A DNA stretch of 64,000 bases from Gammaproteobacteria bacterium. Its GTDB lineage: Bacteria > Pseudomonadota > Gammaproteobacteria > Natronospirales > REEB76. Numbering within the stretch: the first letter of the stretch is position 1; every line of letters starts with the position of its first letter. Position numbers and translations under genes: made by a program. Below, one piece after another: positions 4,172-52,195 of this stretch. The notes beneath the pieces were generated by a model. The model saw only the letters and a list, made by a program, of their open reading frames with translations, had not been told where the DNA came from and ran no database searches. The stretch covers positions 22,882 to 86,881 of the forward strand of contig JBAWFD010000101.1 of NCBI GenBank assembly GCA_049591615.1. The letters run 5' to 3'.

Positions 4172-4296
4172 CGGATACCAGCTGCAGGTATTGCAGTGTG
4201 CGAATGCAATATTTAGCAACAACACGATCCTCGTAAATGCAGAAGCATGCAAAGTGGCGGATAATATCCGTTCAAGTTAAGGAGCGCCGATTCCCA

Positions 4297-5127
4297 ATGT
4301 CGCTGAAAACAATTGCTATCTTTGTTGTCATGTGCATTAGCCTGCTGACTGAGGGCTGCGGCAGCAGCTCGAGCTCTTCCAGTTCCAGTAATACGACCGT
4401 GATCCTGCAAGTCGTGCCAGGGCCATGGAAGGGAACCTATAATCTCAACGGTAGCAGCAACATACCCGTGACCGGCACCGTGGCGGCCGGTGGTTTCGGC
4501 TATTTTGCCGACAACGACGGCAACGTGTTCCTGGTGGAGAATGTGCCCGAAGAATCACCTTTCTCCAGCATTGCTATTGCGACTGCCCCATCGGGACAGA
4601 CTTTTCCGGACGGTAACAGCGTCGATACATTCTCTGTCAATGGCAACTATGTTTCGACAGCCACCTCAACGAACATGACGGGCTCCCTTACGGGGATCGA
4701 TCCCAGCAGCTATGTATCCTATATTGGCTACGCAACTACCGGCGTGAATGGCAATTTCACTCTGGATTCCACTGTGCCCTATACGGGGACTCCGTCTATC
4801 GCCGGCTTGCAGGGCCAGTGGAATGGTTATTACACTGGCAAGACGTCTACCTCGGCAGATATCACAATCAACGCGGATGGCATTTTCAGCGGCAACGATG
4901 GCTACGGTTGCAGCATCAGCGGCAGCCTTGTGCAACAGGACCCCGGTACCAATACATACTTTGTGAACTATGTAAGCAGCGGCTCAGGTTGTCCTGGCGA
5001 CATGAATGGCTTGGCTTATGAAAGTACGATCGATGTATCAGGTGATTTTAGTGGCGCGGCCGGGACTTATTTCTATATGGGGCTATTCGGCCCGAACGTG
5101 GCGTACAGCGCGGAGTTCAAATTGTGA
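4297..5127 (+). CDS. Putative lipoprotein with a poly-Ser linker; function unknown
   Basis: MSLKTIAIFVVMCISLLTEGC followed by GSSSSSSSSSN. TAAGGAG lies upstream of the ATG at 4297, and the longer ORF from 4237 is judged an artefact. G/N/T/S/Y-rich composition like the preceding gene. Confidence 0.5.
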   Translation: MSLKTIAIFVVMCISLLTEGCGSSSSSSSSSNTTVILQVVPGPWKGTYNLNGSSNIPVTGTVAAGGFGYFADNDGNVFLVENVPEESPFSSIAIATAPSGQTFPDGNSVDTFSVNGNYVSTATSTNMTGSLTGIDPSSYVSYIGYATTGVNGNFTLDSTVPYTGTPSIAGLQGQWNGYYTGKTSTSADITINADGIFSGNDGYGCSISGSLVQQDPGTNTYFVNYVSSGSGCPGDMNGLAYESTIDVSGDFSGAAGTYFYMGLFGPNVAYSAEFKL

Positions 5128-6880: not shown

Positions 6881-9193
6881 ATGAAAGTGTGCGATTGTAC
6901 CCCGCGTTGCATACGGTTCTGGAGTCTGTTGGTGAATGTGAGCCGCGCGCTTATCCTCTCTGTCGCACTGCTCGCCTCCGCGCCGCTGCTTGCCGATACT
7001 CCACCTGGGACCATTGGCTATAACCAATGGGCAACCTGCTCAGCCCTGCCGCCTTCCACGCTAATTACTGCCGCACCCGCCGCCAGCTCTATTAACCCAC
7101 CTACGCATGTGGCTGCCGATCAACTCACCGGCTACTTGCACGGCGAGTCATTGCTAACCGGCAATGTCCTGGCCATCCAGGGAGACAGGCAAATGCTCGC
7201 TGATAGCATGCGCTATAACAGCGTATCTGGCGACACCCACGCGCTAGGCGATGTACATTTCAGGTCGCCAAACATCGTGTTACGCGGTCCTTCCGCGGAT
7301 TACAACTTCAACAGCGAGAGTGGCTTGTTCAACGATGCCGAGTTCGTTCTGCCTCAGCGTCATGGCCGCGGTACGGCCAAGATTCTGAAAGTCCTGGACG
7401 AAAATCATGACCTACTCACAGACGTACATTACACCACCTGCCCCGTCGGTAGTCATGACTGGATGTTGAATGCCCCCGATCTGGAATTGGATCAGACCAC
7501 CAATACCGGCGTGGGACATAACGTCACCGTTGATTTCTTTGGCGTGCCCATATTCTGGACGCCCTATATAAACTTCCCATTGAATGATGAACGCAAATCC
7601 GGATTTCTGGCTCCGTCATTTGGATTTGACACTCTGTCAGGCTTTGACATCACAACCCCATACTATCTGAACCTGGCACCTAACTATGATGCCACATTGA
7701 GTCCACGCATCATCAGCAAGCGCGGCTTCGATATGGGCGGTGAATACCGTTATCTGACCGATAGCAGTAATGGATTACTCGATTTAAACTACCTGCCACA
7801 CGACCAGATCGCAGACCAGGAACGTGGACTGGTGAATTACTCTGATCTCACCAAACTGGGGCTCGGATGGAATTTCAATGGCGCTTACAATTGGGTATCG
7901 GATAACCTGTACTTCCAGGATCTGGGTGATAGCCTAGCTGTCATATCCACGACGACCCAGGAACGCCATGCTGCCATCAGTTATGGCTTGCCGGATTCGA
8001 ACTGGACGTTCATGACCCAAGTGCAGGAATGGCAGATTGTCGATCCCACTGTCCTGCCTTCCGAATATCCTTACAAACGTCTTCCACAGACGGTGCTCAG
8101 CTGGCAAAGCGACCCCAGCAGCAATGGACCGCAATATGCGTTCAACAGTGAGCTGGTGCAGTTCCAGCAGGACGAGGAGATCGGCGCCCTGCGTATGGAT
8201 ATCAAACCAGACGTCAGTTATACCTTTGGCAATGCTGGTTATTACTTCACGCCTACCGCGGCGATGCGACTAACCGAGTGGGATCTCAACCAGAATGTAC
8301 CGCCTGGCACCGAGTCACAACTTTCCCGCGCCACTCCCATCATCAGCCTCGATAGTGGGCTGTTTCTGCAACGGGATGTGGGTAACAGTGGCAACTATGT
8401 GCAGACTCTGGAACCGCGGCTTTTTTATCTGTACGTGCCCTATCGCGATCAATCACAGATTCCGATCTTTGACACTATACAACCACAGTTCAACTTCCTG
8501 GAATTATTTAGTGATAACAGTTTTGTCGGGGCTGACCGTCAGAGCGATGCCAACCAGTTAAGCTATGCCCTGACCAGTCGTCTATTGGATACCTCCGATG
8601 GCTCACAGTTGCTGGAGGCGGATATCGGTCAGATTCGCTACTTTAGCAACCGTGACGTGCAGTTGCCCGGAGTCGCGCCACAGACCTATCTGTTTTCCGA
8701 TGTGATTGGCGATCTGACGTTAAACATCAATGACAACTGGTCCGCCATGTATGATCAGCAATGGGACCCCACCACGCGCCAGACGGATGTGGCTTCGATC
8801 GGTGTCCAGTACCATCCAGCATTTCACCAGGTGATCAACCTGGCATACCGCTATAACCGGTCACTGGACCTGAAACAGACCGATCTGTCGTTCGCCTGGC
8901 CTCTCAGCACCCACTGGAGCATGGTAGGCCGCTGGAACTACGATGTGCAAAACAAAGTCACACTGGAGAGCTTTGAAGGGTTTGAGTACGATAGCTGCTG
9001 CTGGACCTTCCAGATAGTGCACCGCAACTACATCACCCAGTTGGGTACTCAATCCGGCACCCAGACAGGTCAAACGAACTCCATGTTTTTCTTCCAGTTG
9101 CAACTCAAGGGTCTTACCACTATCGGACGCCACCTCGAGGATTTCCTGCAAAATGGTATCCTAGGCTATTCCGGTTCCACCCAACCACAGTAA
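6881..9193 (+). CDS. lptD: LPS-assembly outer-membrane protein LptD
   Basis: Signal peptide ...ALILSVALLASAPLLA, a long beta-barrel-type sequence and lptD-surA-pdxA-rsmA synteny. Start is the ATG at 6881 or the GTG at 6932/6938. The 6632 ORF start overlaps amgK and is rejected. Confidence 0.9.
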   Translation: MKVCDCTPRCIRFWSLLVNVSRALILSVALLASAPLLADTPPGTIGYNQWATCSALPPSTLITAAPAASSINPPTHVAADQLTGYLHGESLLTGNVLAIQGDRQMLADSMRYNSVSGDTHALGDVHFRSPNIVLRGPSADYNFNSESGLFNDAEFVLPQRHGRGTAKILKVLDENHDLLTDVHYTTCPVGSHDWMLNAPDLELDQTTNTGVGHNVTVDFFGVPIFWTPYINFPLNDERKSGFLAPSFGFDTLSGFDITTPYYLNLAPNYDATLSPRIISKRGFDMGGEYRYLTDSSNGLLDLNYLPHDQIADQERGLVNYSDLTKLGLGWNFNGAYNWVSDNLYFQDLGDSLAVISTTTQERHAAISYGLPDSNWTFMTQVQEWQIVDPTVLPSEYPYKRLPQTVLSWQSDPSSNGPQYAFNSELVQFQQDEEIGALRMDIKPDVSYTFGNAGYYFTPTAAMRLTEWDLNQNVPPGTESQLSRATPIISLDSGLFLQRDVGNSGNYVQTLEPRLFYLYVPYRDQSQIPIFDTIQPQFNFLELFSDNSFVGADRQSDANQLSYALTSRLLDTSDGSQLLEADIGQIRYFSNRDVQLPGVAPQTYLFSDVIGDLTLNINDNWSAMYDQQWDPTTRQTDVASIGVQYHPAFHQVINLAYRYNRSLDLKQTDLSFAWPLSTHWSMVGRWNYDVQNKVTLESFEGFEYDSCCWTFQIVHRNYITQLGTQSGTQTGQTNSMFFFQLQLKGLTTIGRHLEDFLQNGILGYSGSTQPQ

Positions 9194-11614: not shown

Positions 11615-12405
11615 TACAACGCGACAGGTCAAGACCATTTCAAGCGCGCAAACGTTTCGGTCAGCATTTCCTGCATGATCGCAACGTCATCAACAAAATC
11701 CTGCTGGCCATCGATCCACAGCCGCACGATGTACTCGTGGAAATCGGCCCCGGCATGGGCGCCATTACCCTGCCGCTGCTGGAACGTTGCGGGGCATTGA
11801 CCGCCGTAGAACTGGATCGCGACGTGATCCCTGCGCTACAAGCAGCCGCCAAAGACAAGGGTGATTTGCGTCTCATTCAGGCCGACGCATTGAAAACCGA
11901 CTTTCATACTCTCACGCCAGAAGGATGCAAACTCCGGCTGGTGGGTAACCTGCCCTACAATATCTCCACGCCTCTGCTGTTTCACTGCCTAGACCAGATA
12001 GATGTGATTGCTGATATGCATTTCATGCTGCAGAAGGAGGTCGTGCAGCGCATGGCGGCACAGCCGGGCAGCAAGGATTATGGACGGCTCACGGTCATGC
12101 TGGCAGTGCGCTGCCGGGTGGAACCACTGCTCAACATTGGCGCGGGTGCATTTAAGCCGCCACCCAGGGTGGAATCCGCCTTCGTACGCCTGATACCCTA
12201 TGCACAAGCACCGTTCCCTTTGGGCGATACTGCACGCTTTAAAACCCTGGTCAATCAAGCTTTCAGCCGGCGGCGCAAGACCTTGCGCAATGCTCTCTTG
12301 GGTCTGGTGGACGAATCCGCCATCCGCCGAGCTGGCTTGGACCCTGCGGTACGACCCGAAACCTTGAGCGCCGCCGATTACGCGCATCTGGCTGATGGTA
12401 TATAA
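11611..12405 (+). CDS. rsmA: 16S rRNA (adenine1518/1519-N6) dimethyltransferase
   Basis: FGQHFLHD, VEIGPGMGAIT and GNLPYNISTP motifs. GTGA overlap with pdxA. Confidence 0.92.
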   Translation: MIQRDRSRPFQARKRFGQHFLHDRNVINKILLAIDPQPHDVLVEIGPGMGAITLPLLERCGALTAVELDRDVIPALQAAAKDKGDLRLIQADALKTDFHTLTPEGCKLRLVGNLPYNISTPLLFHCLDQIDVIADMHFMLQKEVVQRMAAQPGSKDYGRLTVMLAVRCRVEPLLNIGAGAFKPPPRVESAFVRLIPYAQAPFPLGDTARFKTLVNQAFSRRRKTLRNALLGLVDESAIRRAGLDPAVRPETLSAADYAHLADGI

Positions 12406-12481
12406 CTCCCGAGACTGAGATGCTTGCAATAGGCGCTGTCAGAGCTTAAAACGTCCTATCCAGAAAATCAGGAAGTGCCGT

Positions 12482-12916
12482 ATGAGCGTCTATAGCCAAG
12501 TCATGGTTGCCGTGGACCTGACCGAAGACAGTACTGCTGTGGCCCGCCGTGGGCACGCGTTGGCCACCCTTTGTGAAGCCAACCTGAGCTTTGTACATGT
12601 GGTGGAATTCATACCGGTGGATCCGGCCGGTGAAGCCCTGCTGCCGCCGCCCGTGGACTTGGAAGGTGAGCTGGTACAAGGCGCCCGCCAACGGTTGGAT
12701 GCCCTTTGCGACAACCTGGGCCTGCAAAAGACGCGCCGTCGGGTGGAAGTAGGCAACATCAAGGCCGAGATCCTGCGGGTTGCAACTGAGGAACGGGCCG
12801 ATTGTCTGGTGCTGGGCAGCCATGGGCGCCACGGTCTGGCACTACTGCTCGGCTCCACGGAGAAATCCCTGCTGCATAAGGCTCCTTGCGATGTACTGGC
12901 GGTGCGTTTGAGCTGA
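12482..12916 (+). CDS. Universal stress protein (UspA family)
   Basis: VMVAVDLTEDS...ADCLVLGSHGRHG...LLGSTEKSLLHKAPCDVLAV is the canonical Usp layout. Confidence 0.8.
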   Translation: MSVYSQVMVAVDLTEDSTAVARRGHALATLCEANLSFVHVVEFIPVDPAGEALLPPPVDLEGELVQGARQRLDALCDNLGLQKTRRRVEVGNIKAEILRVATEERADCLVLGSHGRHGLALLLGSTEKSLLHKAPCDVLAVRLS

Positions 12917-13014
12917 GCACACACCCATCTGTCATTAATTTACTGACAGCAAGCCGTTGGTTTTCGATAAAATAAGGCTTGCCAATCAAATCTCATGCCC
13001 TATCCATGATCGAG

Positions 13015-13389
13015 ATGTCCATCAATAATATCCATGTGGATGTAGAAACAGCTTTTGTGCCGGCCCAATCGGACCCTGGCCAGAACCGCTTTGTATTCGC
13101 CTATACCATCACTATCCGTAATCAGGGCTCATTACCGGCCAAACTCCTGACCCGCCACTGGCTAATCACCGATGCCAACGGCAAGGTGCAGGAGGTACGC
13201 GGTGAAGGTGTCGTGGGCGAACAACCGCATTTGAAGCCCGGAGAAGGTTTTCGTTATTCCAGTGGCGCGATACTGGAGACTCCGGTGGGAGCCATGCAGG
13301 GTGCCTACCAACTGGTGAACGACCAAGGCGAACATTTCGATGCCCCCATAGCACCCTTCCGGCTCGCGGTGCCAGGCTTACTGCACTGA
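13015..13389 (+). CDS. apaG: ApaG (DUF525) protein
   Basis: [13 protein letters not shown]...[28 protein letters not shown]. Start is the ATG at 13015 or 13006; the TTG at 12979 is unlikely. Confidence 0.85.
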
Positions 13390-14243
13390 TGGCAGTTTTC
13401 GCCGTCGGTGACGTCCAGGGCTGTTACGACGATCTGCAACGGTTGCTGGAGCGTCTTAACTTCAATCCGGAGGATGATACGCTGTGGTTAACCGGTGATC
13501 TGGTCAACCGCGGACCGCAATCTCTGGAGGTTTTGCGCTTCGTTAAGAGCCTGGGCAAAGGCGCCGTCTCGGTGCTCGGCAATCATGATCTGCACTTGCT
13601 GGCGCTTGCGGCCGGTATCGATAAACCCAAGCCCACCGACAGTCTGGATGCGGTGCTGACTGCTTCTGACCGAGATGAATTGCTGGACTGGCTGCGCCAC
13701 CGGCCATTGTTACACCAGGACCAAGCCTTGGGTTACACGCTGATCCATGCGGGACTGCCGCCCCAATGGGATTCTGCGATTGCGCAAGCCTGTGCGAACG
13801 AACTTGAGTACGTGCTGCGTGGCCATGATTACCTGGAATTCTTCAGGCACATGTATGGTAACCGTCCAAATCGCTGGTCTGATGCATTGCAAGGTATGGA
13901 ACGGTTGCGCTTCATCGTGAACTGCTTCACGCGCTTGCGTTACTGCACGCCGCAAGGCGCACTGGATCTGGCATCCAAAGGTGCCCCCGGAACACAACCT
14001 CAGGGCTACCTGCCCTGGTTCATGGTTCCGGAGCGCGCCAGTGCCGAATTGCACATCCTCTTCGGTCACTGGTCAGCCTTAGGCGAGATCAAGGGTCATA
14101 ATGTCTATCCGTTGGATACCGGCTGTGTCTGGGGTGGAAAACTATCCGCCCTGCGGCTCGATGGTGACGACAGTGGTAGCTGGTATTGCGTGGACTGTCC
14201 CGGCGCCCGGGAGCAGGCTGAAACGCAGTACTTTAGAATCTGA
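13389..14243 (+). CDS. apaH: Bis(5'-nucleosyl)-tetraphosphatase (symmetrical)
   Basis: AVGDVQGCYDDL, GDLVNRGP and GNHD metallophosphatase motifs. 1-nt overlap with apaG. Confidence 0.9.
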   Translation: MAVFAVGDVQGCYDDLQRLLERLNFNPEDDTLWLTGDLVNRGPQSLEVLRFVKSLGKGAVSVLGNHDLHLLALAAGIDKPKPTDSLDAVLTASDRDELLDWLRHRPLLHQDQALGYTLIHAGLPPQWDSAIAQACANELEYVLRGHDYLEFFRHMYGNRPNRWSDALQGMERLRFIVNCFTRLRYCTPQGALDLASKGAPGTQPQGYLPWFMVPERASAELHILFGHWSALGEIKGHNVYPLDTGCVWGGKLSALRLDGDDSGSWYCVDCPGAREQAETQYFRI

Positions 14244-14245
14244 TT

Positions 14246-15055
14246 ATGGCCAGCAGTACCTCCATCATGAATCTGCGCCTCGACGGCAAACAGGCACTGG
14301 TCTGCGGTGCGAGTCAGGGCATCGGTGCAGCTGCCGGTCGCGCCCTGGCGGAACTGGGCGTCAACGTCACACTGGTGGCGCGTTCGCGAGACAAGCTGGA
14401 AGCAATCCTGGCGCAACTCACCACCGGCAGCGGCCAGCGGCATGACTATTTCATTGCCGATTTCGACCAGCCGGAGACGCTCAAGACGGCGCTTGGCCTG
14501 TGGCTGAAGAATCACGCGCAGGCACATATCCTCATCAATAATTCCGGCGGCCCACCCGGCGGATCCGCCCATGCCGCGAGTATCGAAGAATATCAAAAAG
14601 CCTTCATGCGTTTCATGCTCTGCGGTCAGATGCTAGTGCAAGCGGTGCTGCCCGGTATGCAAAAATCAGGCTATGGTCGCATCATCAATGTGATTTCTAC
14701 ATCGGTGAAGGAACCTATCAAGGGACTGGGTGTGTCGAACACCATCCGCTGGGCAGTGGCAGGTTGGGCCAAGACCCTGGCCAGCGAGCTCGGACCTCAC
14801 GGCATCACGGTCAACAACATCCTGCCCGGCTTCACCCGTACACCCCGAATCGCCAGCTTGTTCAAGGCGCGTGCGGAAAAAGAACAACGCACCGTCTCTG
14901 ATATCGAAAAGGAAGCCATGTCACTGATCCCGCTGAGGCGGTTCGCAGAGCCTGAGGAGATCGCCGCCGCCATCGCCTTCCTGGCCTCACCTGCCGCGAG
15001 CTATATCAATGGCATCAACCTGCCGGTGGATGGTGGTCGTCTCCAAAGCCTCTAG
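14246..15055 (+). CDS. Short-chain dehydrogenase/reductase family protein with an atypical active-site region
   Basis: ALVCGASQGIGAA Rossmann motif, NNSGG and PG...T. By eye the YxxxK position reads S-N-T-I-R. Starts 2 nt after the apaH stop and ends 1 nt before the next gene. Confidence 0.7.
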   Translation: MASSTSIMNLRLDGKQALVCGASQGIGAAAGRALAELGVNVTLVARSRDKLEAILAQLTTGSGQRHDYFIADFDQPETLKTALGLWLKNHAQAHILINNSGGPPGGSAHAASIEEYQKAFMRFMLCGQMLVQAVLPGMQKSGYGRIINVISTSVKEPIKGLGVSNTIRWAVAGWAKTLASELGPHGITVNNILPGFTRTPRIASLFKARAEKEQRTVSDIEKEAMSLIPLRRFAEPEEIAAAIAFLASPAASYINGINLPVDGGRLQSL

Positions 15056-15056
15056 C

Positions 15057-16502
15057 ATGCAGAAACTTGCCAACTATATAGATGGTAAAACCCCCCCAGC
15101 GGCTTCGGGCGGCTGGCTTGAAGATTTTGAACCAGCCACCGGCCAGGTGTATGCGCATTGCCCTGATTCCGAAAAGGCCGATATAGACAATGCTGTCGCC
15201 GCTGCCCAGCATACCTTCCCGGCCTGGTCAGCCACGCCTGCGGCCGAGCGCGGCGAGAGGCTGCACAGACTCGCGGCGTTAATCGAACGCGATCTCGAAA
15301 AGCTGTCGCATGCTGAGAGCAAGGACTCTGGCAAACCCATCGCCCTCGCCCGCAGCCTGGATATCCCCCGGGCCGTAACCAACCTGCGTTTCTTTGCCGC
15401 CGCCGCCAGCCAGTTCGCCAGCGAATCGCATGCCATGGAATCCGGCGCCATCAACTATACGCTGCGCCCACCCCTGGGCGTGGTCGGCTGCATCTCGCCC
15501 TGGAACCTGCCGCTGTACCTGTTCACCTGGAAGATTGCTCCGGCACTCGCGGCCGGTAACTGCGTAGTGGCGAAACCTTCTGAACTTACGCCTATGACCG
15601 CCTATCTGTTCTCGGAACTCTGCATCGAAGCCGATCTGCCGCCCGGCGTGCTCAATGTTGTGCACGGCCTCGGGTCAAAAGCCGGTACGGCCCTGGTTGA
15701 ACATCCGCAGGTGAAGGCTATCTCCTTCACTGGTGGCACCCGGACCGGCGCCGACATCGCCGCTCGTGCGGGACCCAAGTTCAAGAAGTTGTCACTGGAA
15801 CTGGGCGGCAAGAACCCGACCCTGGTGTTCGCCGACTGTGATTTCGAAACCACGGTGTCGGAAACTGTGCGAGCAGCGTTCTCCAATCAGGGTGAGATCT
15901 GCCTGTGCGGCTCACGCATACTTATCGAACGCAGCCTGTATGCGCGCTTTCGCGACGCATTCGTGGCGCGCGCCCGTAGCTTGCGTCAGGGCGATCCAAA
16001 AGATGAGCGTACTGAACAAGGCGCGTTGATCTCCGCGGCACATCTGCAAAAAGTCATGGGATACGTCGAGCTCGCCCAGAAAGAGGGTGGAAAGATCCTG
16101 TGCGGAGGTCGGCGTGCAAAACTCGGCGGCCGCTGCGCCGACGGTTGGTTCGTGGAGCCGACAGTCATCGAAAACCTGGCGTCAGATTGCCGCACTAACC
16201 AGGAAGAAATCTTCGGCCCGGTGGTCACGCTGATTCCTTTCGACACCGAAGACCAAGCCGTTGCTTACGCCAATGGGACGCCTTACGGCCTCGCTGCCTC
16301 TCTCTGGAGCCGCGATATAGCGCGCTGCCACCGCGTAGCCGCGAGGCTGGAAGCTGGTCTCATCTGGATCAACTGCTGGATGCTGCGCGACCTGCGCGTG
16401 CCTATGGGCGGCGTGAAGCAGTCCGGTACCGGTCGTGAAGGCGGCTGGGAAGCCATGCGCTTCTTCACAGAAGCGCGCAACATCTGCATCAAGTATGAAT
16501 AA
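15057..16502 (+). CDS. NAD-dependent aldehyde dehydrogenase, probably 2-aminomuconate-6-semialdehyde dehydrogenase
   Basis: ALDH motifs ELGGKNP and EICLCGSR (catalytic Cys) and EEIFGPV. Context between the RidA, HAAO and ACMSD genes. Confidence 0.75.
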   Translation: MQKLANYIDGKTPPAASGGWLEDFEPATGQVYAHCPDSEKADIDNAVAAAQHTFPAWSATPAAERGERLHRLAALIERDLEKLSHAESKDSGKPIALARSLDIPRAVTNLRFFAAAASQFASESHAMESGAINYTLRPPLGVVGCISPWNLPLYLFTWKIAPALAAGNCVVAKPSELTPMTAYLFSELCIEADLPPGVLNVVHGLGSKAGTALVEHPQVKAISFTGGTRTGADIAARAGPKFKKLSLELGGKNPTLVFADCDFETTVSETVRAAFSNQGEICLCGSRILIERSLYARFRDAFVARARSLRQGDPKDERTEQGALISAAHLQKVMGYVELAQKEGGKILCGGRRAKLGGRCADGWFVEPTVIENLASDCRTNQEEIFGPVVTLIPFDTEDQAVAYANGTPYGLAASLWSRDIARCHRVAARLEAGLIWINCWMLRDLRVPMGGVKQSGTGREGGWEAMRFFTEARNICIKYE

Positions 16503-16917
16503 GCGCAGCAAGATAGCATCCACCAACGCACCAGAGCCGGTCGGGCTTTATCCGCATGCGCGGCGCGTCGGTGATCTGCTGTTCCTCTCCGGTGTAGGCC
16601 CGCGCAAGCGCGGCAGCAAAGATATCCCCGGTGTGAAGCTCGACGCCCATGGAAATGTCCTCAGTTATGAAATCGAGGCCCAGTGCCATTCGGTGTTCGA
16701 GAATGTGCGCCTGATACTGGAAGATGCCGGTTCTGGCTGGGACCGGCTGGTGGACGTGTGCGTATTCCTCACCGACATGCGGCGCGACTTCGTCACCTAC
16801 AACCGAATCTACGCCGAATACTTCAAAGATAACCAGCCCTGTCGCACCACGGTGGAAGTGACAGCGCTGCCGACGCCCATCGCCATCGAACTCAAATGCA
16901 TTGCCACGATTGACTGA
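16495..16917 (+). CDS. RidA/YjgF-family deaminase, putative 2-aminomuconate deaminase
   Basis: [25 protein letters not shown]...CRTTVEV RidA signature. 8-nt overlap with the ALDH gene. Confidence 0.7.
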
Positions 16918-16934
16918 GATTTGGGGAGGACGCC

Positions 16935-17456
16935 ATGAGCGCCATGAACGTACTCAATTTCCATAAATGGATCGACGACAACCGTCATCTGCTAAAGCCG
17001 CCAGTCGGCAACAAATGCGTCTATGACGGCGACTTCATCGTCATGGTGGTGGGTGGGCCCAATTCCCGCAAGGACTATCACTACGACGAAGGTCCGGAAT
17101 TCTTTCATCAGATCGAAGGTGAGATGCTGCTGAAGACCATGCAGGGTGGCAGGCCGGTCGATTACCCTATCCGCGCCGGCGAGATATTCCTGCTGCCGCC
17201 ACGCGTGCCGCATTCACCACAGCGTTTCGCCAACTCCGTTGGCCTCGTAATCGAGCGCAAGCGTCTGCCTGACGAACAGGATGGGCTGCTGTGGTTCTGC
17301 GAACGATGCCACAGCAAACTCTATGAGGAATACTTCAGACTGCTGAACATCGAGAAGGATTTCCCGCCGGTGTTTGACCGGTTCTTCGGCAACCTGGAGT
17401 ATCGCACCTGCAAAAAATGCGGTGCCGTGATGGATGCGCCGGACAAGAAAAAATAA
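16935..17456 (+). CDS. nbaC: 3-hydroxyanthranilate 3,4-dioxygenase
   Basis: Cupin core [18 protein letters not shown]...[16 protein letters not shown] and a C-terminal CERC...CKKC rubredoxin-like site. GGGGAGGA SD upstream. Confidence 0.9.
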
Positions 17457-17459
17457 CAC

Positions 17460-18470
17460 ATGCTGAAGATAGACATCCACACCCACATCCTGCCCAGCAA
17501 CTGGCCGGACCTGAAGGAAAAATACGGCTACGGCGGTTTCGTGCAGCTGCATCACCACGGTCCAGGTTGCGCACGCCTGCTGAAAGACGGTGAATTTTTC
17601 CGGGAGGTGCAAGCCAATTGCTGGGATGGCGAGGTCCGGCTGCGCGAATGCGCTGCCCATGGAGTGGGCGTGCAGGTATTGTCCACCGTACCGGTGATGT
17701 TCAGCTATTGGGCAAAGCCCAAAGATACCTTGGACCTGTCCCGCCTGTTGAACGATCACATCGCCGGCCTGGTGGCAGAACACCCGCGCCGCTTCGTCGG
17801 CCTCGGCACACTGCCACTGCAATCACCGGAGCTGGCCATCCGCGAACTGCAACGTTGCATCCAAGAGCTGGGATTTCCTGGTGTACAGATCGGCACGCAT
17901 GTGAACGGCATGAACCTGGACGATCCGCAGCTGTTTCCGGTGTTCGAAGCCGCCCAGGAACTGGGTGCTGCAGTCTTCGTGCATCCCTGGGACATGCTCG
18001 GCAAGGAGCGTATGCGCAAATACTGGACACCGTGGCTGGTGGCCATGCCGGCGGAGACCTCATTGGCCGTGTGCTCGATGATCTTCGGTGGCATATTCGA
18101 ACGTCTGCCCAAACTGCGTGTGTGTTTCGCCCATGGGGGTGGTGCATTTCCTGCCACCCTGGGGCGCATCGAGCATGGCTTCCAGGTGCGTCCCGATTTG
18201 TGCGCCGTGGACAACAGCATCAATCCCGCAAATTATCTCGGCAAGTTTTATGTGGATTCATTGGTGCATCACGCGGGCATGTTGAACTATATGATCGATC
18301 TCCTGGGTGCGAACAGCATCGCACTCGGCAGCGACTATCCATTTCCCCTGGGTGAACATATGCCGGGCCAGCTCATCGAATCCATGCCGCTTGACACCGA
18401 GACCAAACAGCGGCTTTTGCATGGTACCGCTCTGGAGTGGTTGCGGCTCGATAAGGCGCAGTACCTGTGA
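17460..18470 (+). CDS. nbaD: 2-amino-3-carboxymuconate-6-semialdehyde decarboxylase (amidohydrolase family)
   Basis: IDIHTHILP...FVHPWDM...FAHGGGAFP...[10 protein letters not shown]. Confidence 0.85.
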
Positions 18471-19243
18471 ATATCCTGCGTTTTGAAATCGGCAACCATC
18501 ATTGCAGCGTGGACACGGCGCGTGGTGTATCGCTGGCGATACCCCTGCAGTTCGACGGTCCACAGCCCAACTTTTTCGCGGCACCCACCGCCAGTGCCGA
18601 AGCGCTGCAGACGGATGACTTCATCGGCGATACCCATCAGGGTGGCAGCTGCAATGTCAGCCATTACCACCTGGTCCCCCACTGCAATGGCACGCACACG
18701 GAATGCATCGGTCACGTGGTGGACGATGCCGCCACCGTGACCGAGCAGCTGCGTCAATCACTGCTGCCGGCCACCCTGGTCACGCTTGCGCCGCGTCATA
18801 ACCTCATCGATGCGGCGCTGATCAAGATGAGCCTGCAGCATCATCCGATGCCCGAACTGCATACGGCCTTCATCATCCGCACCCTGCCCAACACCCGGGA
18901 AAAGCTCTCACACCGGTACGATGTTGTGCCGCCGGCGTATCTGGCTGAAGAAGCCGTAGGCTTGCTGGTGGCTGCCGGCGTCGAACACCTGCTGGTGGAT
19001 CTGCCATCCCTCGATCCCATGCACGACGAGGGACGGCTGGCGGCACACCGCGCTTTCTGGGGCTTGCCCGCCAGCAGCCGACGCCTAGCCGATGCCAAGC
19101 GGCCGCGCGCCACCATCACCGAGATGATCTATGTGCCCGATCAGGTCAAGGACGGCTACTACCTGCTGGACCTGCAGATCCCGGCGTTCATGAGTGACGC
19201 TGCACCCAGCCGACCTGTAATCTATCCGGTAGAAATGAAATGA
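18467..19243 (+). CDS. Cyclase-family protein, putative kynurenine formamidase with a variant metal motif
   Basis: [12 protein letters not shown] resembles the cyclase/KynB HxGTHxDxPxH motif with D->E and P->I. ATGA-type overlaps with both neighbours. Confidence 0.5.
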
Positions 19244-20520
19244 TCTTCCGCACCGATGCCAAGTTCGCCGCTGAGATGGACCGGTCTGACCCGTTGGCCG
19301 ATTATCGCTACAAATTTCACATTCCAACCTACGAGGATGGCGAAGAAATATATCTATGCGGCAACTCTCTCGGGTTACAGCCGAAAGCCACCGAACGTTA
19401 CCTACATGAGGAACTGGAGGACTGGGCGCGTCTGGGTGTGAAGGGCCATTTCGCCGGACGCCGCCCATGGATGCCTTATCACGAACTGTTCAGCGAGCGC
19501 AGCGCGCGCCTGGTGGGCGCCGAACCGCTGGAAGTCATCAACATGAATTCACTCACCGTCAACCTGCACCTGATGCTGGTGAGTTTCTACCGGCCTACGG
19601 CAGCACGCAACCGCATACTCATCGAGCGCAGCGCCTTTCCCTCCGATCGATACGCGGTGGCATCCCAGATCCGTTTCCACGGCTTCGACCCGGACACCAG
19701 CCTGGTGGAACTCGCATCTGCCGGAGCCCTGCGGACACTGGATATAGATGAGGTGGAGGCCCTCATCCGTGCCGAAGGTGAGCGTCTTGCGCTGGTGATG
19801 CTACCGGGGGTGCAGTACGCCAGCGGCCAGGTATTTGATATGGCACGCATCACGCGCGCGGCCCATGCGGTGGGCGCGGTAGCCGGTTTCGACCTGGCGC
19901 ATGCCGCCGGCAACTTGCCGCTGCAGCTCCACGATTGGGACGTGGATTTTGCCGTATGGTGCAACTACAAATATATGAATGCCGGTCCTGGTGCGGTAGC
20001 CGGCTGCTTCGTGCACGCGCGCCACGCCCGCGCGCTTGAGCTGCCGCGCTTTGCCGGCTGGTGGGGTCACGACAAGGCTACGCGCTTCCGTATGGGTCCG
20101 GAGTTCGTGCCCATGCCCGGCGCGGAAGGCTGGCAGATCAGCAACCCACCAATCCTGGCGCTGGCACCCTTGCTGGCGTCCTTGGAGATCTTCGATGACG
20201 TAGGCATGCCTAAACTGCGGGAGAAATCCCTGCAGCTCAGCGGTTATCTTGAATTCCTGCTGGACCAGCGACTGCCAGAAGCAGTTGAGATACTCACGCC
20301 GCGTAATCCTACCGAACGCGGTTGCCAGCTATCGCTGCGGATCTCAGGCAGCCACAGTCGTGCCAGGGAGATCTTTACGCGCCTGGAGCAGGCCGGCGTG
20401 ACCGCCGACTGGCGCGAACCGGATGTCCTGCGTATTGCTCCGGTGCCGCTCTACAACACTTATGCCGACGTGTACCGCTTCGTGGACATCCTTGATAAGG
20501 TGGTCAGTGACGCGTTATAA
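19240..20520 (+). CDS. kynU: Kynureninase
   Basis: IYLCGNSLGLQPK, DLAHAAGN and the WCNYKYMNAGPG PLP-lysine region. Confidence 0.9.
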   Translation: MIFRTDAKFAAEMDRSDPLADYRYKFHIPTYEDGEEIYLCGNSLGLQPKATERYLHEELEDWARLGVKGHFAGRRPWMPYHELFSERSARLVGAEPLEVINMNSLTVNLHLMLVSFYRPTAARNRILIERSAFPSDRYAVASQIRFHGFDPDTSLVELASAGALRTLDIDEVEALIRAEGERLALVMLPGVQYASGQVFDMARITRAAHAVGAVAGFDLAHAAGNLPLQLHDWDVDFAVWCNYKYMNAGPGAVAGCFVHARHARALELPRFAGWWGHDKATRFRMGPEFVPMPGAEGWQISNPPILALAPLLASLEIFDDVGMPKLREKSLQLSGYLEFLLDQRLPEAVEILTPRNPTERGCQLSLRISGSHSRAREIFTRLEQAGVTADWREPDVLRIAPVPLYNTYADVYRFVDILDKVVSDAL

Positions 20521-20572
20521 AACGCGTACATTAACCCCGCACAAAGATAATTAAAAAATCGCTTTTGTCATT

Positions 20573-21934
20573 ATGCATACTGATAAAGAGATTACATTGA
20601 TTGGCGCCGGCCTGGCCGGCAGCCTGCTGTCCATCTTCCTGGCGCGCCGTGGTCTCCAAGTGACGGTCTACGAACGCCAGCCCGACATGCGGCATCACGA
20701 CATCGCTGCCGGCCGATCCATCAATCTGGCCCTGGCCCAGCGTGGCATCCGGCCACTCAAAGAGGCTGGCATATTCGAACAGGTCTCGAAGCTCCTGATC
20801 CCCATGCGCGGACGCATGCTGCACGATGAGCAGGGCCACACGACACTGACACCTTACGGCCGTAAATCCACCGAAGTTATTCATTCGATCTCGCGGCCTG
20901 GTCTGAACAGATTGCTCATGAATGCCGCGCAGGCCGCGGGTGCCAACATACTGTTCCAGCAGCGTTGCGAGGACATGGATTTCGAAAATTCTACACTGAC
21001 ACTCAGTGATCAATCCGGCAAACAATATTCCATCAATGCCCACAGCGTGATCGCCACGGATGGCGGCGGATCGACGCTACGCCAGGCCCTGGTGAAACGG
21101 CTTGGCGTCAACGTGGTGGAAGATATCCTGCCCCACGGTTACAAGGAACTCGCCATCAACGCTGGTGCAGACGGCCACCATCGTTTGGATCGCGAAGCCT
21201 TGCACATCTGGCCACGCGGCGGTTACATGCTCATCGCCCTGCCGAACCTGGACGGCAGCTTCACGGTGACCTTGTTTTTGCCCATGCAAGGCGACCCCAG
21301 TTTTGCTTCCCTGGATAAGCCCAGGGCCGTGCTGAAATTCTTTGAGAAGAATTTCCCCGACGCTCTGCAGCTATTACCCAATCTGGAAAATGAATTCTTT
21401 GCACATCCCATCGGATTCATGGGCACGGTGCATTGCGCGCGCTGGCATGCGGATGGCAAGCTTCTGTTGCTGGGAGATGCCGCCCACGCCATCGTGCCTT
21501 TCCACGGTCAGGGCATGAACTGCGCCTTCGAGGATTGCCTGCTCCTGGACCGATGTCTGGATAAATACGGCGATGATTGGCAAAGCATATTCAGCGAGTT
21601 CGAGACCTTGCGTCGCCCGGATACCGAAGCCATCGCCGAGATGGCACTGGAAAACTACGTGGAGATGCGTGCTATGGTACGCAATTCCAGGTTCCAGCTG
21701 CAAAAGCAACTTGGCTTCCTGCTGGAAGAGCGTCACCCAGGCATATTCGTGCCACGCTACTCCATGGTGATGTTCCATCACTTACCTTATTCCGAGGCCA
21801 GGCGCCGCGGTGCGATTCAGCAACGGATACTTGACGATCTGACCGCTGATACTACGTCCCTCGAGCAGGTGGATTTTGAGCGCGCCGATGCGCTGATCGA
21901 TGAAACTCTCGGAACCAGCAGGATAGAGGCATGA
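20573..21934 (+). CDS. kmo: Kynurenine 3-monooxygenase (FAD)
   Basis: ITLIGAGLAGSLLSIFLARRG dinucleotide fold. LLGDAAHAIVPFHGQGMNCAFED FAD motif. Confidence 0.88.
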   Translation: MHTDKEITLIGAGLAGSLLSIFLARRGLQVTVYERQPDMRHHDIAAGRSINLALAQRGIRPLKEAGIFEQVSKLLIPMRGRMLHDEQGHTTLTPYGRKSTEVIHSISRPGLNRLLMNAAQAAGANILFQQRCEDMDFENSTLTLSDQSGKQYSINAHSVIATDGGGSTLRQALVKRLGVNVVEDILPHGYKELAINAGADGHHRLDREALHIWPRGGYMLIALPNLDGSFTVTLFLPMQGDPSFASLDKPRAVLKFFEKNFPDALQLLPNLENEFFAHPIGFMGTVHCARWHADGKLLLLGDAAHAIVPFHGQGMNCAFEDCLLLDRCLDKYGDDWQSIFSEFETLRRPDTEAIAEMALENYVEMRAMVRNSRFQLQKQLGFLLEERHPGIFVPRYSMVMFHHLPYSEARRRGAIQQRILDDLTADTTSLEQVDFERADALIDETLGTSRIEA

Positions 21935-22983
21935 ACACTCATCCTTTCCTTCAGGGCCTGGGCAGCAACCCCGATTTCCTACTGCAGAATTTTGACCTGG
22001 CAAATCGTCGTGCACTGGTGGTGCGGGTCAACGAGAGTGTTTACCGGGAAGCATCCTTCCTGGATGACCGCATATTAAATCCCCAGACGGAAGGATTCTG
22101 GCTGCCGCTGGAATCTGTGTTGCAGCAGACGGGCCAGCTTACACCCGCTAAGCCGCACTATATTTTCCATGTTGGGCATTGCGGTTCCACACTCATTTCG
22201 CGTCTGCTCGCGGAACTGCCTCATTGTCTACCGTTGCGGGAACCGATGTCGCTTTTAACTCTTGCAGTTGCCAGACGCGAACTGGGCCGTGTTTCTTCCT
22301 GGTTGACGACTGCGCAATGGAACCAGCTGCTACAGACTGCCATCAGCTCGCTCGCCAGGACTTACCGGAAATCTGATAAATCCCTGATTAAGGTCACCAG
22401 TAATGCAGGCAACCTGCTGGAATCCCTACTACCAGTATCGGAAGGGGACTCGCATATCTTGATGATGTATATCAGTCTGGAATCCTATCTGGCGGTTATG
22501 TTGCGGACTCAGGATCTTCGCGCCAGCATCCATGCTTTTTCACCTGTATGGATGACAGATTTCTGCCGTCTGACGGGAAGAACTGATCTGTGTTTAGCTG
22601 AACTCGGCGATGCACAACAAATCACTCTTAAATGGCTTGTTATCTTGATGCTGTTCGTGCGGGCGGGAACATCATCACAGTCTGAGTCACAATTGCTCAA
22701 CTTCGACAAATTCCTCATGAATCCTCTGGAGCGATTCATGCAGATAACCGGATTATTTAAACTTGAATGCGACATGGAAAAAGCTCGACAGCTGCTTGAT
22801 GGGCCTATGATGCAGAGATATTCCAAGATTCCAACGCAGAGCTTCAATCACACGCAACGCAATAGCGAACTGCGGGACGCGCGTCAGAAATTCCAGCCTG
22901 AGATTAATGCTGGCCTCAAGTGGGCAGAGACGCTATGTCGCGAAATACCCGCACTTGCGTCTGTGGCCGCTTATCTCGGTTAA
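21931..22983 (+). CDS. Hypothetical protein, sulfotransferase-fold-like
   Basis: HYIFHVGHCGSTLISRLLAELPHCLPLREP resembles the PAPS 5'-phosphosulfate-binding loop (G-x-x-R/x-S-G-S-T-L-L...EP). ATGA overlap with kmo. GC is visibly lower (~40-47% in sampled lines). Confidence 0.4.
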   Translation: MNTHPFLQGLGSNPDFLLQNFDLANRRALVVRVNESVYREASFLDDRILNPQTEGFWLPLESVLQQTGQLTPAKPHYIFHVGHCGSTLISRLLAELPHCLPLREPMSLLTLAVARRELGRVSSWLTTAQWNQLLQTAISSLARTYRKSDKSLIKVTSNAGNLLESLLPVSEGDSHILMMYISLESYLAVMLRTQDLRASIHAFSPVWMTDFCRLTGRTDLCLAELGDAQQITLKWLVILMLFVRAGTSSQSESQLLNFDKFLMNPLERFMQITGLFKLECDMEKARQLLDGPMMQRYSKIPTQSFNHTQRNSELRDARQKFQPEINAGLKWAETLCREIPALASVAAYLG

Positions 22984-23004
22984 ATACTGCTTGTATCGCC
23001 AAGC

Positions 23005-23505
23005 TTAGGCCACATTGCGAGGTAGCTTGCGCTCCAGCGTGATGAAGGAATACGGGTGGGCATTAAGCATGTCAGCTGCATGATCCTCGCGTGCTATCTC
23101 ACGCCAGCTTGAGGTATCAATCGCCGGGAAGAAGGTATCTGCATCGAAATGCGCGTGCACACGCGTCAGGTATATCCGCTGTGTCCGCGGCAAGGCCTCG
23201 TGGTAGATCTCGCCGCCGCCGATGACCATACTTTCTGCAGACCCAGCGGCCAGCACTAAAGCATCTGTGAATGACTGCGTGACTTCGCAGCCAGGAGGGC
23301 TGTAGCCAGGTCTACGGGAAACCACGATGTTGCGTCGCTCTGGCAAGGGCTTGCCGATGGCCTCGAACGTCTTGCGCCCCATGATGACCGGTTTGCCAAG
23401 TGTTATTGATTTGAAATGCTTGAGATCAGCCGGCAGATGCCATGGCATGCGGCCGGCCTTGCCGATCTCGTTGTTTTCACCAGCGGCAACAACCAGAGAA
23501 AGCAT
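23005..23505 (-). CDS. folA: Dihydrofolate reductase
   Basis: IGKAGRMPWHLPADLKHFKSITLGKPVIMGRKTFEAIG. Confidence 0.9.
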   Translation of the reverse strand: MLSLVVAAGENNEIGKAGRMPWHLPADLKHFKSITLGKPVIMGRKTFEAIGKPLPERRNIVVSRRPGYSPPGCEVTQSFTDALVLAAGSAESMVIGGGEIYHEALPRTQRIYLTRVHAHFDADTFFPAIDTSSWREIAREDHAADMLNAHPYSFITLERKLPRNVA

Positions 23506-23558
23506 TAATCCGACTTGGCACCGATCGGTGCTGTATTAATAGCGAACATGCAATGCGT

Positions 23559-24353
23559 TCAAACAGCGATCTGCGCTTTGATGGCGGAGTGGCTCTGGTA
23601 ACCGGTAATCTCGAAATCTTCATACTGATAATCGAACAGGCTCGGCGGTTTGCGCTTGATATGCAGGCTCGGTAATCGATGCGGTTCGCGTGATAATTGT
23701 TCATCCACCTGCTGCAGATGATTCAGATACAGATGGCAGTCGCCCCCGGTCCAGATGAACTCTCCCGGCTTGAGGCCAGTCTGTTGCGCGAGCATATGCG
23801 TGAGCAGTGCGTAGGAACAGATATTGAATGGCACGCCTAGGAAGATATCGGCGCTGCGTTGGTAGAGCTGGCAGGATAACCGGCCTTCGGCTACATAGAA
23901 CTGGAAGAACGCATGACAGGGTTGCAACGCCATCTCCTGCAGATCGGCCACGTTCCAGGCGCTGACGATGATGCGGCGCGAATCGGGGGTGTTACGCAGT
24001 TGCTCGAGCACCTTCTTTACCTGGTCGATATGGCGCCCATCCGGCGCCGGCCAGGAACGCCATTGATAACCGTACACCGGCCCGAGATCGCCATTCTCGT
24101 CTGCCCATTCATCCCAGATGCTGACGCCATGCTCATGCAGATATCGGGTATTGGTATCGCCACGCAAGAACCACAGGAGTTCATGGATGATGGAGCGGAA
24201 ATGCAGTTTCTTGGTGGTGACCGCCGGAAATCCTGCATTCAGGTCGAACCGCATCTGGTAACCGAATACCGAAAGCGTACCGGTGCCGGTACGGTCACTC
24301 TTGCGCGTACCATGGTCACGCACATGCCGCATGAGTTCCAGGTACTGTCGCAT
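23559..24353 (-). CDS. thyA: Thymidylate synthase
   Basis: [11 protein letters not shown]...DRTGTGT...[12 protein letters not shown]...[13 protein letters not shown]. Start at the internal ATG (24353), 264 aa. TGATG 1-nt overlap with lgt. Confidence 0.95.
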
Positions 24354-52146: not shown

Positions 52147-52195
52147 ATAATGAGTGGTCGGCAAGGCGTGAACGCGTATTTCACGGTAACAAGTG

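Follow-up and report, generated by a model that had tools for sequence, protein, structure and literature searches.

How the carbon of 2-aminomuconate gets to 2-oxoadipate is a question in tryptophan catabolism that has stood since the 1960s. To our knowledge, neither KEGG nor MetaCyc nor GapMind holds a gene for the 2-oxoadipate-forming step, and we know of no enzyme for the route to 2-oxoadipate in those fungi and bacteria that have the deaminase and lack the decarboxylase branch. [quoted passage not shown] From comparisons with orthologs and structural relatives, we give about an even chance to the proposal that this SDR is an NADPH-dependent ene-reductase that acts on 2-oxohex-3-enedioate to give 2-oxoadipate. 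It is probable that 2-oxoadipate arises by a reductive step, whether before or after the RidA-family deaminase of the operon acts, and some role of the SDR in the lower kynurenine pathway is very likely.

A metazoan 2-aminomuconate reductase was reported in a June 2026 preprint, which identified it as aspartate dehydrogenase (ASPDH), the human enzyme being NAD(P)H-dependent (bioRxiv 10.64898/2026.06.05.730449). ASPDH was found through its co-evolution with kynurenine genes and leads toward the 2-oxoadipate/glutaryl-CoA route; its product is an amino acid, no ammonia is released, and the later steps to 2-oxoadipate are left open. The same preprint reports that fungi use a bacterial-like RidA deaminase instead of ASPDH, and it mentions neither a bacterial reductase nor an SDR (bioRxiv 10.64898/2026.06.05.730449). 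The role proposed for the window SDR resembles that of human ASPDH in being an NAD(P)H-dependent reduction directly downstream of 2-aminomuconate. The proteins themselves differ: ASPDH has the aspartate dehydrogenase family fold, whereas the window SDR matches only SDR families in Pfam, its top structural neighbors are all SDRs, and it does not belong to the ASPDH family. Moreover, ASPDH and RidA-type deaminases exclude each other in eukaryotes, whereas the bacterial SDR co-occurs with a RidA-type deaminase. The initial annotation, which was made from the nucleotide sequence of the window, had stated that, as far as was known, conversion of 2-aminomuconate to 2-oxoadipate by an NAD(P)H-dependent aminomuconate reductase has no assigned gene. 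This is now only partly true: it is outdated for the amino-acid-forming reaction of animals, assigned to ASPDH, and for the reduction of 2-oxohex-3-enedioate we found no gene; the step from 2-aminomuconate to 2-oxoadipate is only partly orphan. Our literature search likewise returned no named 4-oxalocrotonate or 2-oxohex-3-enedioate reductase and no SDR tied to ACMSD clusters, although most subscription journals fell outside the search and an earlier mention is possible.

Two groups of SDRs serve as points of reference. AerF of Microcystis aeruginosa (PDB 6JH7/6JHA/6JHB) and BacG (YwfH) of Bacillus subtilis are NADPH-dependent reductases that convert dihydro- to tetrahydro-4-hydroxyphenylpyruvate, reducing a C=C bond in conjugation with a 2-oxo acid, a functional group that 2-oxohex-3-enedioate also has. 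AerF has been solved bound to NADPH and 4-hydroxyphenylpyruvate, and Rajavel et al. are said to have assigned catalytic roles to K113 and Y117 of BacG in 2013. The other group consists of SDRs with an S-N-x-x-R sequence in place of the catalytic Y-x-x-x-K (e.g., 5VA8, 2Z1N, and 1O5I), which presumably correspond to CDD cd05344 'BKR-like SDR-like'. Five structures of S-N-x-x-R SDRs have been solved, but we know of no function assigned to them.

The window SDR belongs to the classical SDR superfamily. It passes the Pfam thresholds for adh_short_C2 (PF13561; E-value 1e-39, 137 bits versus a threshold of 27) and adh_short (PF00106; 4e-35, 121 versus 26.6) and has the Rossmann fold with G21xxxG25xG27 and N98-N-S-G. 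The AlphaFold2 model (pLDDT 90, pTM 0.90) has the alternating β/α pattern. The gene and its functional positions are as follows:

14246–15055, + strand: atypical SDR gene (open reading frame and translation, 269 amino acids (aa)), the subject of this work
14306–14326, + strand: glycine-rich dinucleotide-binding motif G21-A-S-Q-G-I-G27; G21, G25, and G27 are invariant in 39 homologs
14381–14383, + strand: Arg46 codon, a basic residue after strand β2 (LVAR-S), invariant in the clade
14537–14554, + strand: NNSGGP, residues 98–103 (NNSGG, residues 98–102, at 14537–14551), an NNAG-type motif plus a Gly-Pro that is invariant in the atypical group
14696–14698, + strand: Ser151 codon, aligned with FabG S138 and invariant in 52 orthologs; the sole retained member of the catalytic tetrad
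14735–14749, + strand: S164-N165-T166-I167-R168 in place of Y-x-x-x-K, aligned with FabG Y151..K155; its S, N, and R do not vary within the clade
14846–14848, + strand: Arg201 codon (T199-x-R201 after a PG motif), invariant in the clade
15038–15040, + strand: Arg265 codon (DGG-R), a clade-specific residue

We mapped the active site by alignment to Escherichia coli FabG, using a sequence identical to PDB 1I01. FabG S138, Y151, and K155 fall on S151, S164, and R168 of the window SDR, and the helix-4 asparagine of FabG falls on F123. In place of the canonical Asn-Ser-Tyr-Lys tetrad, the window SDR has F123-S151-S164-R168, with three of the four residues lost. The initial annotation had placed S-N-T-I-R at the YxxxK position by a manual alignment. 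Because the FabG tyrosine and lysine fall on S164 and R168, that alignment was correct, and the catalytic asparagine is lost in addition; the GASQGIG (residues 21–27) and NNSGG motifs are intact, as had been claimed. We also looked for a canonical Tyr/Lys pair and for orthology to a known unrelated SDR and found neither. Residues 160–182 read GLGVSNTIRWAVAGWAKTLASEL. As an internal control, a second SDR of the window (52193–53035, + strand, 280 aa) carries the canonical YNASK.

A basic residue after strand β2 is typical of NADP(H)-preferring SDRs. Invariant Arg46, together with closest structures that were solved with NADP(H) (5VA8, 5IDY, 5VPS, 6JHA/B, and 3U4C), points to an NADP(H) preference of the window SDR. 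Arg201, which is also found in 5VA8, 2Z1N, BacG, and AerF and is methionine in FabG, is a candidate carboxylate-binding residue. Arg265 is conserved in all 39 kynurenine-linked orthologs and in 12 of 13 unlinked ones, with T, L, A, S, or M in outgroups, and may bind a distal carboxylate. These roles for R168, R201, and R265 follow from sequence position and conservation, not from measured three-dimensional distances.

The S-N-x-x-R motif is not private to the window SDR and marks a known group of atypical SDRs. The top PDB sequence matches are Burkholderia 5VA8 (8e-53), 5VPS, and 5IDX, Aeropyrum APE0912 (2Z1N), and Thermotoga TM1169 (1O5I). HMMER residue alignments show S-N-x-x-R at the Y-x-x-x-K position in all five, and the E-values of these atypical matches run from 8e-53 to 9e-39. 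A Foldseek search with the AlphaFold2 model likewise places atypical S-N-x-x-R entries first (TM-scores 0.79–0.89, the best ∼0.89). With its S-N-x-x-R and NNxGGP sequences, the window SDR is a member of this group. The solved relatives (5VA8, 5IDX/5IDY, 5VPS, 2Z1N, and 1O5I) resemble it in S-N-x-x-R, in the GGP after NNxG, and in R201, and they were solved with NADP(H), but they are at most 41% identical, fall outside the kynurenine clade (bootstrap 198/200), and lack H66, G162, W174, and R265.

No NCBIfam model reaches its cutoff against the window SDR. The best match is PRK08339 (NF006212), at 198.8 bits versus a cutoff of 339, and the protein is not assigned to that family. Homologs are labeled 3-oxoacyl-ACP reductase or FabG in their source annotation (JGI), but these labels are unsupported because the FabG models score far below their cutoffs (159 versus 222 for NF009466, 126 versus 296 for NF004198, and 125 versus 298 for TIGR01830). 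FabG shares the classical-length SDR fold, the glycine-rich motif, NNxG, and the catalytic serine with the window SDR; it differs in its Tyr151, Lys155, and catalytic asparagine, all replaced in the window SDR, which also has no fatty-acid synthesis genes as neighbors.

AerF and BacG are the sole characterized enzymes among the top Foldseek matches, with TM-scores of 0.85–0.91. AerF is the sixth sequence match (6JH7, 8e-36) and gives the best TM-score (6JHB, 0.91); BacG (3U49/3U4C; the sequence that we used is identical to 3U49) matches with an E-value of ∼1e-27. Like the window SDR, both have an SDR fold without Y-x-x-x-K (S..N in AerF and N..N in BacG), with K-E-P as part of the active-site loop and a T-x-R that follows the PG motif; the structures of both carry NADPH. 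They differ in identity (24–38%), in lying outside the kynurenine clade, and in context. AerF and BacG act in prephenate-derived nonribosomal peptide biosynthesis, whereas the context in the window is one of kynurenine-pathway genes only, and its neighbors include no prephenate decarboxylase or cupin isomerase (BacA/BacB, AerD/AerE). By these comparisons, the window SDR is placed in the structural neighborhood of the AerF/BacG ene-reductases but outside their family.

Orthologs of the window SDR form a distinct clade that is linked to kynurenine genes. In a neighbor-joining tree, 52 orthologs group apart from the other atypical SDRs (bootstrap 198/200). The clade carries the signature ISTSVK[EQ]P..LGVSNT.R.A.A.W[AS]KT plus invariant H66, R201, and R265, and the window protein has all of these; it shares the common descent, the signature, and the genomic linkage of the kynurenine-cluster group. 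Linkage was scored in a genome scan with the SDR that yielded 80 loci, using tblastn to find kynurenine genes within 10 kb. Such genes were found in 27 of the 42 loci with an SDR at least 50% identical to that of the window versus 0 of the 38 loci with a more distant one (Fisher p = 6.5e-11). We then grouped neighbor families without bias, by all-against-all clustering of every open reading frame (ORF) in the scanned loci. The families that recur across phyla are aldehyde dehydrogenase (ALDH; 25 loci), 3-hydroxyanthranilate 3,4-dioxygenase (HAO; 18), ACMSD (18), RidA (17), kynurenine 3-monooxygenase (KMO; 11), and kynureninase (KYNU; 11). Other families are only clade-specific housekeeping genes or antisense shadow ORFs. 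Recurring ∼215-aa ORFs beside the SDR were considered as a missing pathway enzyme and rejected, as they are mutually unrelated (FMN_bind_2, carbonic anhydrase, O-methyltransferase, and DUF6090).

An independent sample of 80 loci came from metagenome contigs baited with an ACMSD alignment. An SDR ortholog (44–58% identity to the window SDR) is present in 15 of them; where an ALDH of the 2-aminomuconate-6-semialdehyde dehydrogenase (AMSDH) type and sufficient flank are present, the SDR is adjacent in ten loci and absent in two. Seven ACMSD-baited loci contain a family of the tryptophan 2,3-dioxygenase (TDO) type. In L082, whose family member matches PF03301, and in L109, this gene is the immediate upstream neighbor of the SDR gene. 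These two loci hold a complete operon in the order TDO-SDR-ALDH-RidA-HAO-ACMSD-KFA(-KYNU-KMO), where KFA is kynurenine formamidase.

The linkage spans at least six phylum-level groups: Gammaproteobacteria, Bacteroidota, Gemmatimonadota, Planctomycetota, Calditrichota, and Eisenbacteria. Cultured Natronospira bacteriovora has the layout of the window, but with a gap of 260 nt between apaH and the SDR gene. In a metagenome-assembled genome (MAG) from Planctomycetota (Mariniblastus), KMO-KYNU-KFA is divergent from SDR-ALDH-RidA, and a Calditrichota MAG holds the full operon. Gene order differs among loci (SDR-ALDH, ALDH-SDR, or HAO divergent from the SDR); one locus (L084) reads apaH-SDR-ACMSD-KMO, with ALDH, RidA, and HAO not adjacent. 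This varied order across six phyla suggests functional coupling rather than inherited synteny. The initial annotation had proposed the SDR as a candidate for the route to 2-oxoadipate from the context of one operon. The linkage of orthologs to kynurenine genes, its spread over six phyla, the complementary distribution described next, and the resemblance to AerF and BacG support it as a candidate and strengthen the case considerably beyond that single-operon argument.

A bacterial alternative is the classical 3-hydroxyanthranilate or 2-aminophenol meta-cleavage pathway. Searching annotated plasmids with an ACMSD protein, we obtained five clusters of this classical 3-hydroxyanthranilate kind. 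Their hosts, Polaromonas sp. JS666, Cupriavidus pauculus, Bacillus sp. F19, Vibrio nigripulchritudo, and Streptomyces anthocyanicus, represent Beta- and Gammaproteobacteria, Bacillota, and Actinomycetota. Each cluster encodes HAO, ACMSD, ALDH, and RidA together with 4-oxalocrotonate decarboxylase, 2-oxopent-4-enoate hydratase, a DmpG aldolase, and an acylating acetaldehyde dehydrogenase. None of the five has an SDR annotated in its operon, and tblastn of the window SDR against the Polaromonas, Cupriavidus, and Bacillus clusters found no ortholog; the Vibrio and Streptomyces clusters were judged from annotation only. The upper enzymes are homologous between the two kinds of cluster (38–47% identity for HAO, ACMSD, ALDH, and RidA), and the branch-point metabolite, 4-oxalocrotonate, is the same. 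However, classical clusters have the four extra genes and no SDR of the clade, whereas SDR-type clusters have the SDR and none of those four: ORF clustering of both locus samples shows no recurring FAA-hydrolase, aldolase, or acetaldehyde dehydrogenase family. The window agrees with this. The initial annotation had described its operon as having the deaminase and no 4-oxalocrotonate branch, which is true of the operon and of all 46 window ORFs scanned with Pfam, none of which is an FAA-hydrolase, a DmpG aldolase, or an acylating acetaldehyde dehydrogenase. Thus, two kinds of cluster combine homologous upper enzymes with either a four-gene decarboxylase branch or a single SDR. On this reading, the SDR would be a functional alternative to the decarboxylase/hydratase/aldolase branch, and the predicted end products are pyruvate and acetyl-CoA for classical clusters versus 2-oxoadipate for SDR-type clusters.

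By homology and context, HAO, ACMSD, the AMSDH-type ALDH, and RidA of the operon can be expected to convert 3-hydroxyanthranilate via 2-aminomuconate to 2-oxohex-3-enedioate (4-oxalocrotonate/2-hydroxymuconate). We propose that the SDR would then move a hydride from NADPH to C4 of the 2-oxo-3-enoate, a 1,4-addition that reduces C3=C4. Ser151, Ser164, and Asn165 would stabilize the 2-enolate formed in this way, protonation at C3 would yield 2-oxoadipate, and Arg168 (at the classical lysine position), Arg201, and clade-specific Arg265 would bind the two carboxylates. The product could then join the general route from 2-oxoadipate to glutaryl-CoA. Such an active site would suit a dicarboxylate because R168, R201, and R265 are invariant. 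The ene-reductase reading fits the loss of the proton relay for carbonyl reduction (Tyr, Lys, and Asn), the nearest characterized relatives, which reduce C=C bonds of 2-oxo acids, and the mutual replacement of the SDR and the decarboxylase branch.

Several observations weigh against this reading. Fifteen of the 42 ortholog loci, e.g., that of Aureispira, have no kynurenine gene within 10 kb. Three related gammaproteobacterial loci (L091, 6971–11026; L093, 7761–13621; L106, 7577–13640) carry apaG-apaH-RidA-HAO-ACMSD-KYNU-KMO without an SDR or ALDH nearby, and L160 has ALDH and RidA without the SDR; the first three suggest that the SDR and ALDH come and go together. The absence of the 4-oxalocrotonate branch refers only to clusters with 10-kb flanks, and the clusters contain no linked genes for a glutaryl-CoA or 2-oxoadipate dehydrogenase. 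BacG K113 and Y117, which are conserved in AerF, correspond to F123 and G127 in the window SDR and to H123 and N127 in most orthologs, so that any mechanism must differ in detail from that of BacG; conversely, BacG and AerF lack Ser151 and Arg168 of the clade and have Gly and Asn instead. Finally, a 40%-identical S-x-x-x-R SDR of Rhodoferax (L043, 5251–15472) lies in a nonulosonic-acid-type sugar cluster, together with Polysacc_synt_2, RmlD-like, DegT aminotransferase, and NeuB genes. The wider atypical group is therefore functionally heterogeneous; function belongs to the clade, and the motif does not dictate the chemistry.

The main rival reverses the order of the two steps: the SDR would reduce C4=C5 of 2-aminomuconate or its imine tautomer, and RidA would hydrolyze the resulting 2-enamine or 2-iminoadipate to 2-oxoadipate and ammonia. 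Hydrolysis of 2-imino and enamine acids is the usual role of RidA-family enzymes, a metazoan nicotinamide-dependent reductase accepts 2-aminomuconate, and the SDR is paired most tightly with the ALDH that makes this compound, the two genes being adjacent in most loci and both missing from L091, L093, and L106. However, the best solved relative of the window RidA is a true 2-aminomuconate deaminase (6IZH), the homologous RidA of classical clusters must act directly on 2-aminomuconate, and in L084 the SDR gene has no ALDH gene next to it; we regard the reversed order as unlikely. The same closeness of the SDR to the ALDH that forms 2-aminomuconate could also indicate an ASPDH-like enzyme, convergent with the metazoan one, that reduces 2-aminomuconate to an amino acid (2-aminohex-3-enedioate or 2-aminoadipate) with no deamination. 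Human ASPDH shows that such chemistry exists, but deaminase and reductase are reported to be mutually exclusive in eukaryotes (bioRxiv 10.64898/2026.06.05.730449). In bacteria, a dedicated deaminase gene co-occurs with the SDR in 17 loci and again in the metagenome set, and the clusters share no conserved aminotransferase or amino-acid dehydrogenase, which makes this alternative very unlikely.

Other alternatives concern the nature of the protein itself. Quite unlikely is a carbonyl reductase or dehydrogenase that acts on another pathway compound, for example one interconverting 2-oxoadipate and 2-hydroxyadipate or detoxifying by reduction the reactive 2-amino-3-carboxymuconate and 2-aminomuconate semialdehydes, with atypical residues standing in for Tyr and Lys. 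The fold, cofactor site, and Ser151 of the window SDR are intact, and mBFP, an SDR long deemed to do no more than bind NADPH and fluoresce, was later found to be active as an aldehyde reductase. Yet the proton-relay Tyr, Lys, and Asn are all gone and their replacements invariant, the nearest characterized relatives reduce C=C rather than C=O, and one would not expect a side-reaction enzyme to stand in for the 4-oxalocrotonate branch with such regularity. The lead offered by NADPH-fluorescent or pseudo-enzyme SDRs (mBFP and an atypical SDR of Vibrio vulnificus) was set aside, as these proteins are not among the close PDB relatives, and kept as a low-probability rival only. The loss of three of four tetrad residues, and the five solved S-N-x-x-R structures without an assigned function, would also suit a non-catalytic NADP(H)-binding pseudo-enzyme, which would sense redox state or, as a partner protein, stabilize or channel the unstable ALDH intermediates. 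Against this highly improbable role, the active-site loop (the ISTSVK-to-R portion of the signature), R201, and R265 are strongly and specifically conserved, which is unusual for a mere binder, and the pathway would still have no enzyme disposing of 4-oxalocrotonate. Least credible is an unrelated FabG-like housekeeping gene that lies by chance between apaH and the kynurenine genes. The 3-oxoacyl-ACP reductase labels of homologs, the 2-nt spacing from apaH, and the lptD-surA-pdxA-rsmA-apaG-apaH neighborhood common to gammaproteobacterial relatives would fit it, but all FabG models fall far short of their cutoffs, the catalytic Tyr and Lys are absent, and the kynurenine linkage persists in phyla without apaH nearby. 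This synteny effectively refutes a chance neighbor.

For the ene-reductase reading, a conserved bacterial gene at the gap between 2-aminomuconate and 2-oxoadipate is a directly testable candidate, and cultured hosts of the clade include Natronospira bacteriovora P0080, Saprospira grandis, Leeuwenhoekiella sp. A16, and Nonlabens xiamenensis. Whether the clade represents the first gene for a 2-oxohex-3-enedioate reductase and so defines a third, hitherto undescribed lower kynurenine pathway in bacteria, from tryptophan via 2-aminomuconate and 2-oxoadipate to glutaryl-CoA, is in our judgment evenly balanced. If it does, a pathway with a 'mammalian-type' end would have a wide distribution across Bacteroidota, Gemmatimonadota, Planctomycetota, Calditrichota, and some Gammaproteobacteria. 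The pathway reconstructions of KEGG, MetaCyc, and GapMind could be corrected, the 'FabG' and 'SDR family oxidoreductase' labels of the clade replaced, and a first function given to the solved but orphan S-N-x-x-R SDR group. The SDR would then have a Ser/Ser/Asn/Arg active site without catalytic Tyr or Lys, a solution non-homologous to that of metazoan ASPDH, and would supply adipate bioproduction with an enzyme that forms the precursor 2-oxoadipate from aromatic feedstocks. Chemically, the proposal is more plausible than it is surprising, and a parallel animal solution has just been reported. The novelty would lie in an ene-reductase that combines the SDR fold with its own set of active-site residues, and in another way for bacteria to end the kynurenine pathway, at 2-oxoadipate.

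In the window, the SDR gene is followed by a same-strand block:

15057–16502, + strand: 2-aminomuconate-6-semialdehyde dehydrogenase-type ALDH (Pfam Aldedh, 2.6e-168; PDB AMSDH 4U3W, 2e-135, also 7BZV and 4I1W)
16495–16917, + strand: RidA-family protein, probable 2-aminomuconate deaminase (PF01042; best PDB match 6IZH, a 2-aminomuconate deaminase, 4.6e-23)
16935–17456, + strand: HAO (NF009763, 254 bits versus a cutoff of 220)
17460–18470, + strand: ACMSD-type amidohydrolase (PF04909, 3e-44; 57–83% identity to ACMSD of related clusters)
18467–19243, + strand: cyclase-family KFA candidate (PF04199, 4e-11)
19240–20520, + strand: KYNU (TIGR01814, 464 bits versus a cutoff of 246)
20573–21934, + strand: FAD monooxygenase, KMO candidate (PF01494; co-clusters with KYNU in at least 11 loci)
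21931–22983, + strand: 350-aa closing gene of the block, with a 4-nt overlap between its ATG and the KMO stop

Upstream of the SDR gene lies the housekeeping block lptD-surA-pdxA-rsmA-usp-apaG-apaH. The 64-kb window has no TDO gene, and operons of close gammaproteobacterial relatives likewise lack one, suggesting that the first step is encoded elsewhere or that the operon may start from kynurenine or formylkynurenine. In clusters of other phyla, TDO lies directly upstream of the SDR (L082, 5436–6542; L171, 545–1645; L012, 14229–15140). A gene for the quinolinate synthase NadA is present at 43322–44428 (− strand), and quinolinate can thus come from aspartate. With NadA in the window and ACMSD in the operon, the operon is best read as probably catabolic and not as serving NAD synthesis. 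In Flavobacteriales and Planctomycetota, a much more divergent amidohydrolase occupies the ACMSD position (L011, 10814–11896; L016, 4087–4788; L028, 5892–7016; L170, 10671–11876). These proteins are 28–30% identical to the window ACMSD or belong to Amidohydro_3 and may represent a non-orthologous or fast-evolving decarboxylase. Genes at 55–61 kb of the window that had been considered as 2-oxo-acid dehydrogenase genes are arginine biosynthesis genes and were ruled out.

The SDR reading frame extends from an ATG at 14246 to a TAG at 15053–15055. The start at 14246 is favored because close relatives (L001–L003 and L005) keep that ATG but have Leu or Ser at the alternative start, Met8. One nucleotide separates the SDR stop from the ALDH ATG at 15057, as first described. 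It is plausible, as was claimed along with this, that the SDR gene opens the kynurenine operon, but the gene is almost contiguous with apaH, whose TGA stop (14241–14243) ends 2 nt ahead of the SDR ATG. A consensus scan of 12400–23600 found no promoter or terminator between them and nothing above shuffled expectation anywhere in that range. One further element precedes the gene:

14232–14243, + strand: TTTAGAATCTGA box with a −10-like TAGAAT and the apaH stop codon inside, conserved in relatives

The last base of TAGAAT lies 7 nt before the SDR ATG, and a Shine-Dalgarno sequence is absent. The box is kept in the window and in L001–L003; the L001 copy (8202–8217) is intergenic, past the apaH stop, and those of L002 and L003 are directly upstream of position 10001. 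L004 and L005 have different A/T-rich hexamers in place of TAGAAT. The scan, which sought two hexamers, did not pick up the box, which may be a candidate promoter of a leaderless kynurenine-operon mRNA.

Elsewhere in the window, three ORFs on the + strand (2453–4171, 4237–5127, and 54299–55243; 572, 296, and 314 aa) have no Pfam match. For the 350-aa gene that closes the kynurenine block (21931–22983), searches of Pfam, NCBIfam, and PDB gave no match. Its homologs number 519, the named ones all from uncultured Gammaproteobacteria, and some of them carry PF13469 Sulfotransfer_3. The protein itself has a P-loop-like HVGHCGSTLISRLL, and homologs likewise come after KMO in L002, L003, and L005.

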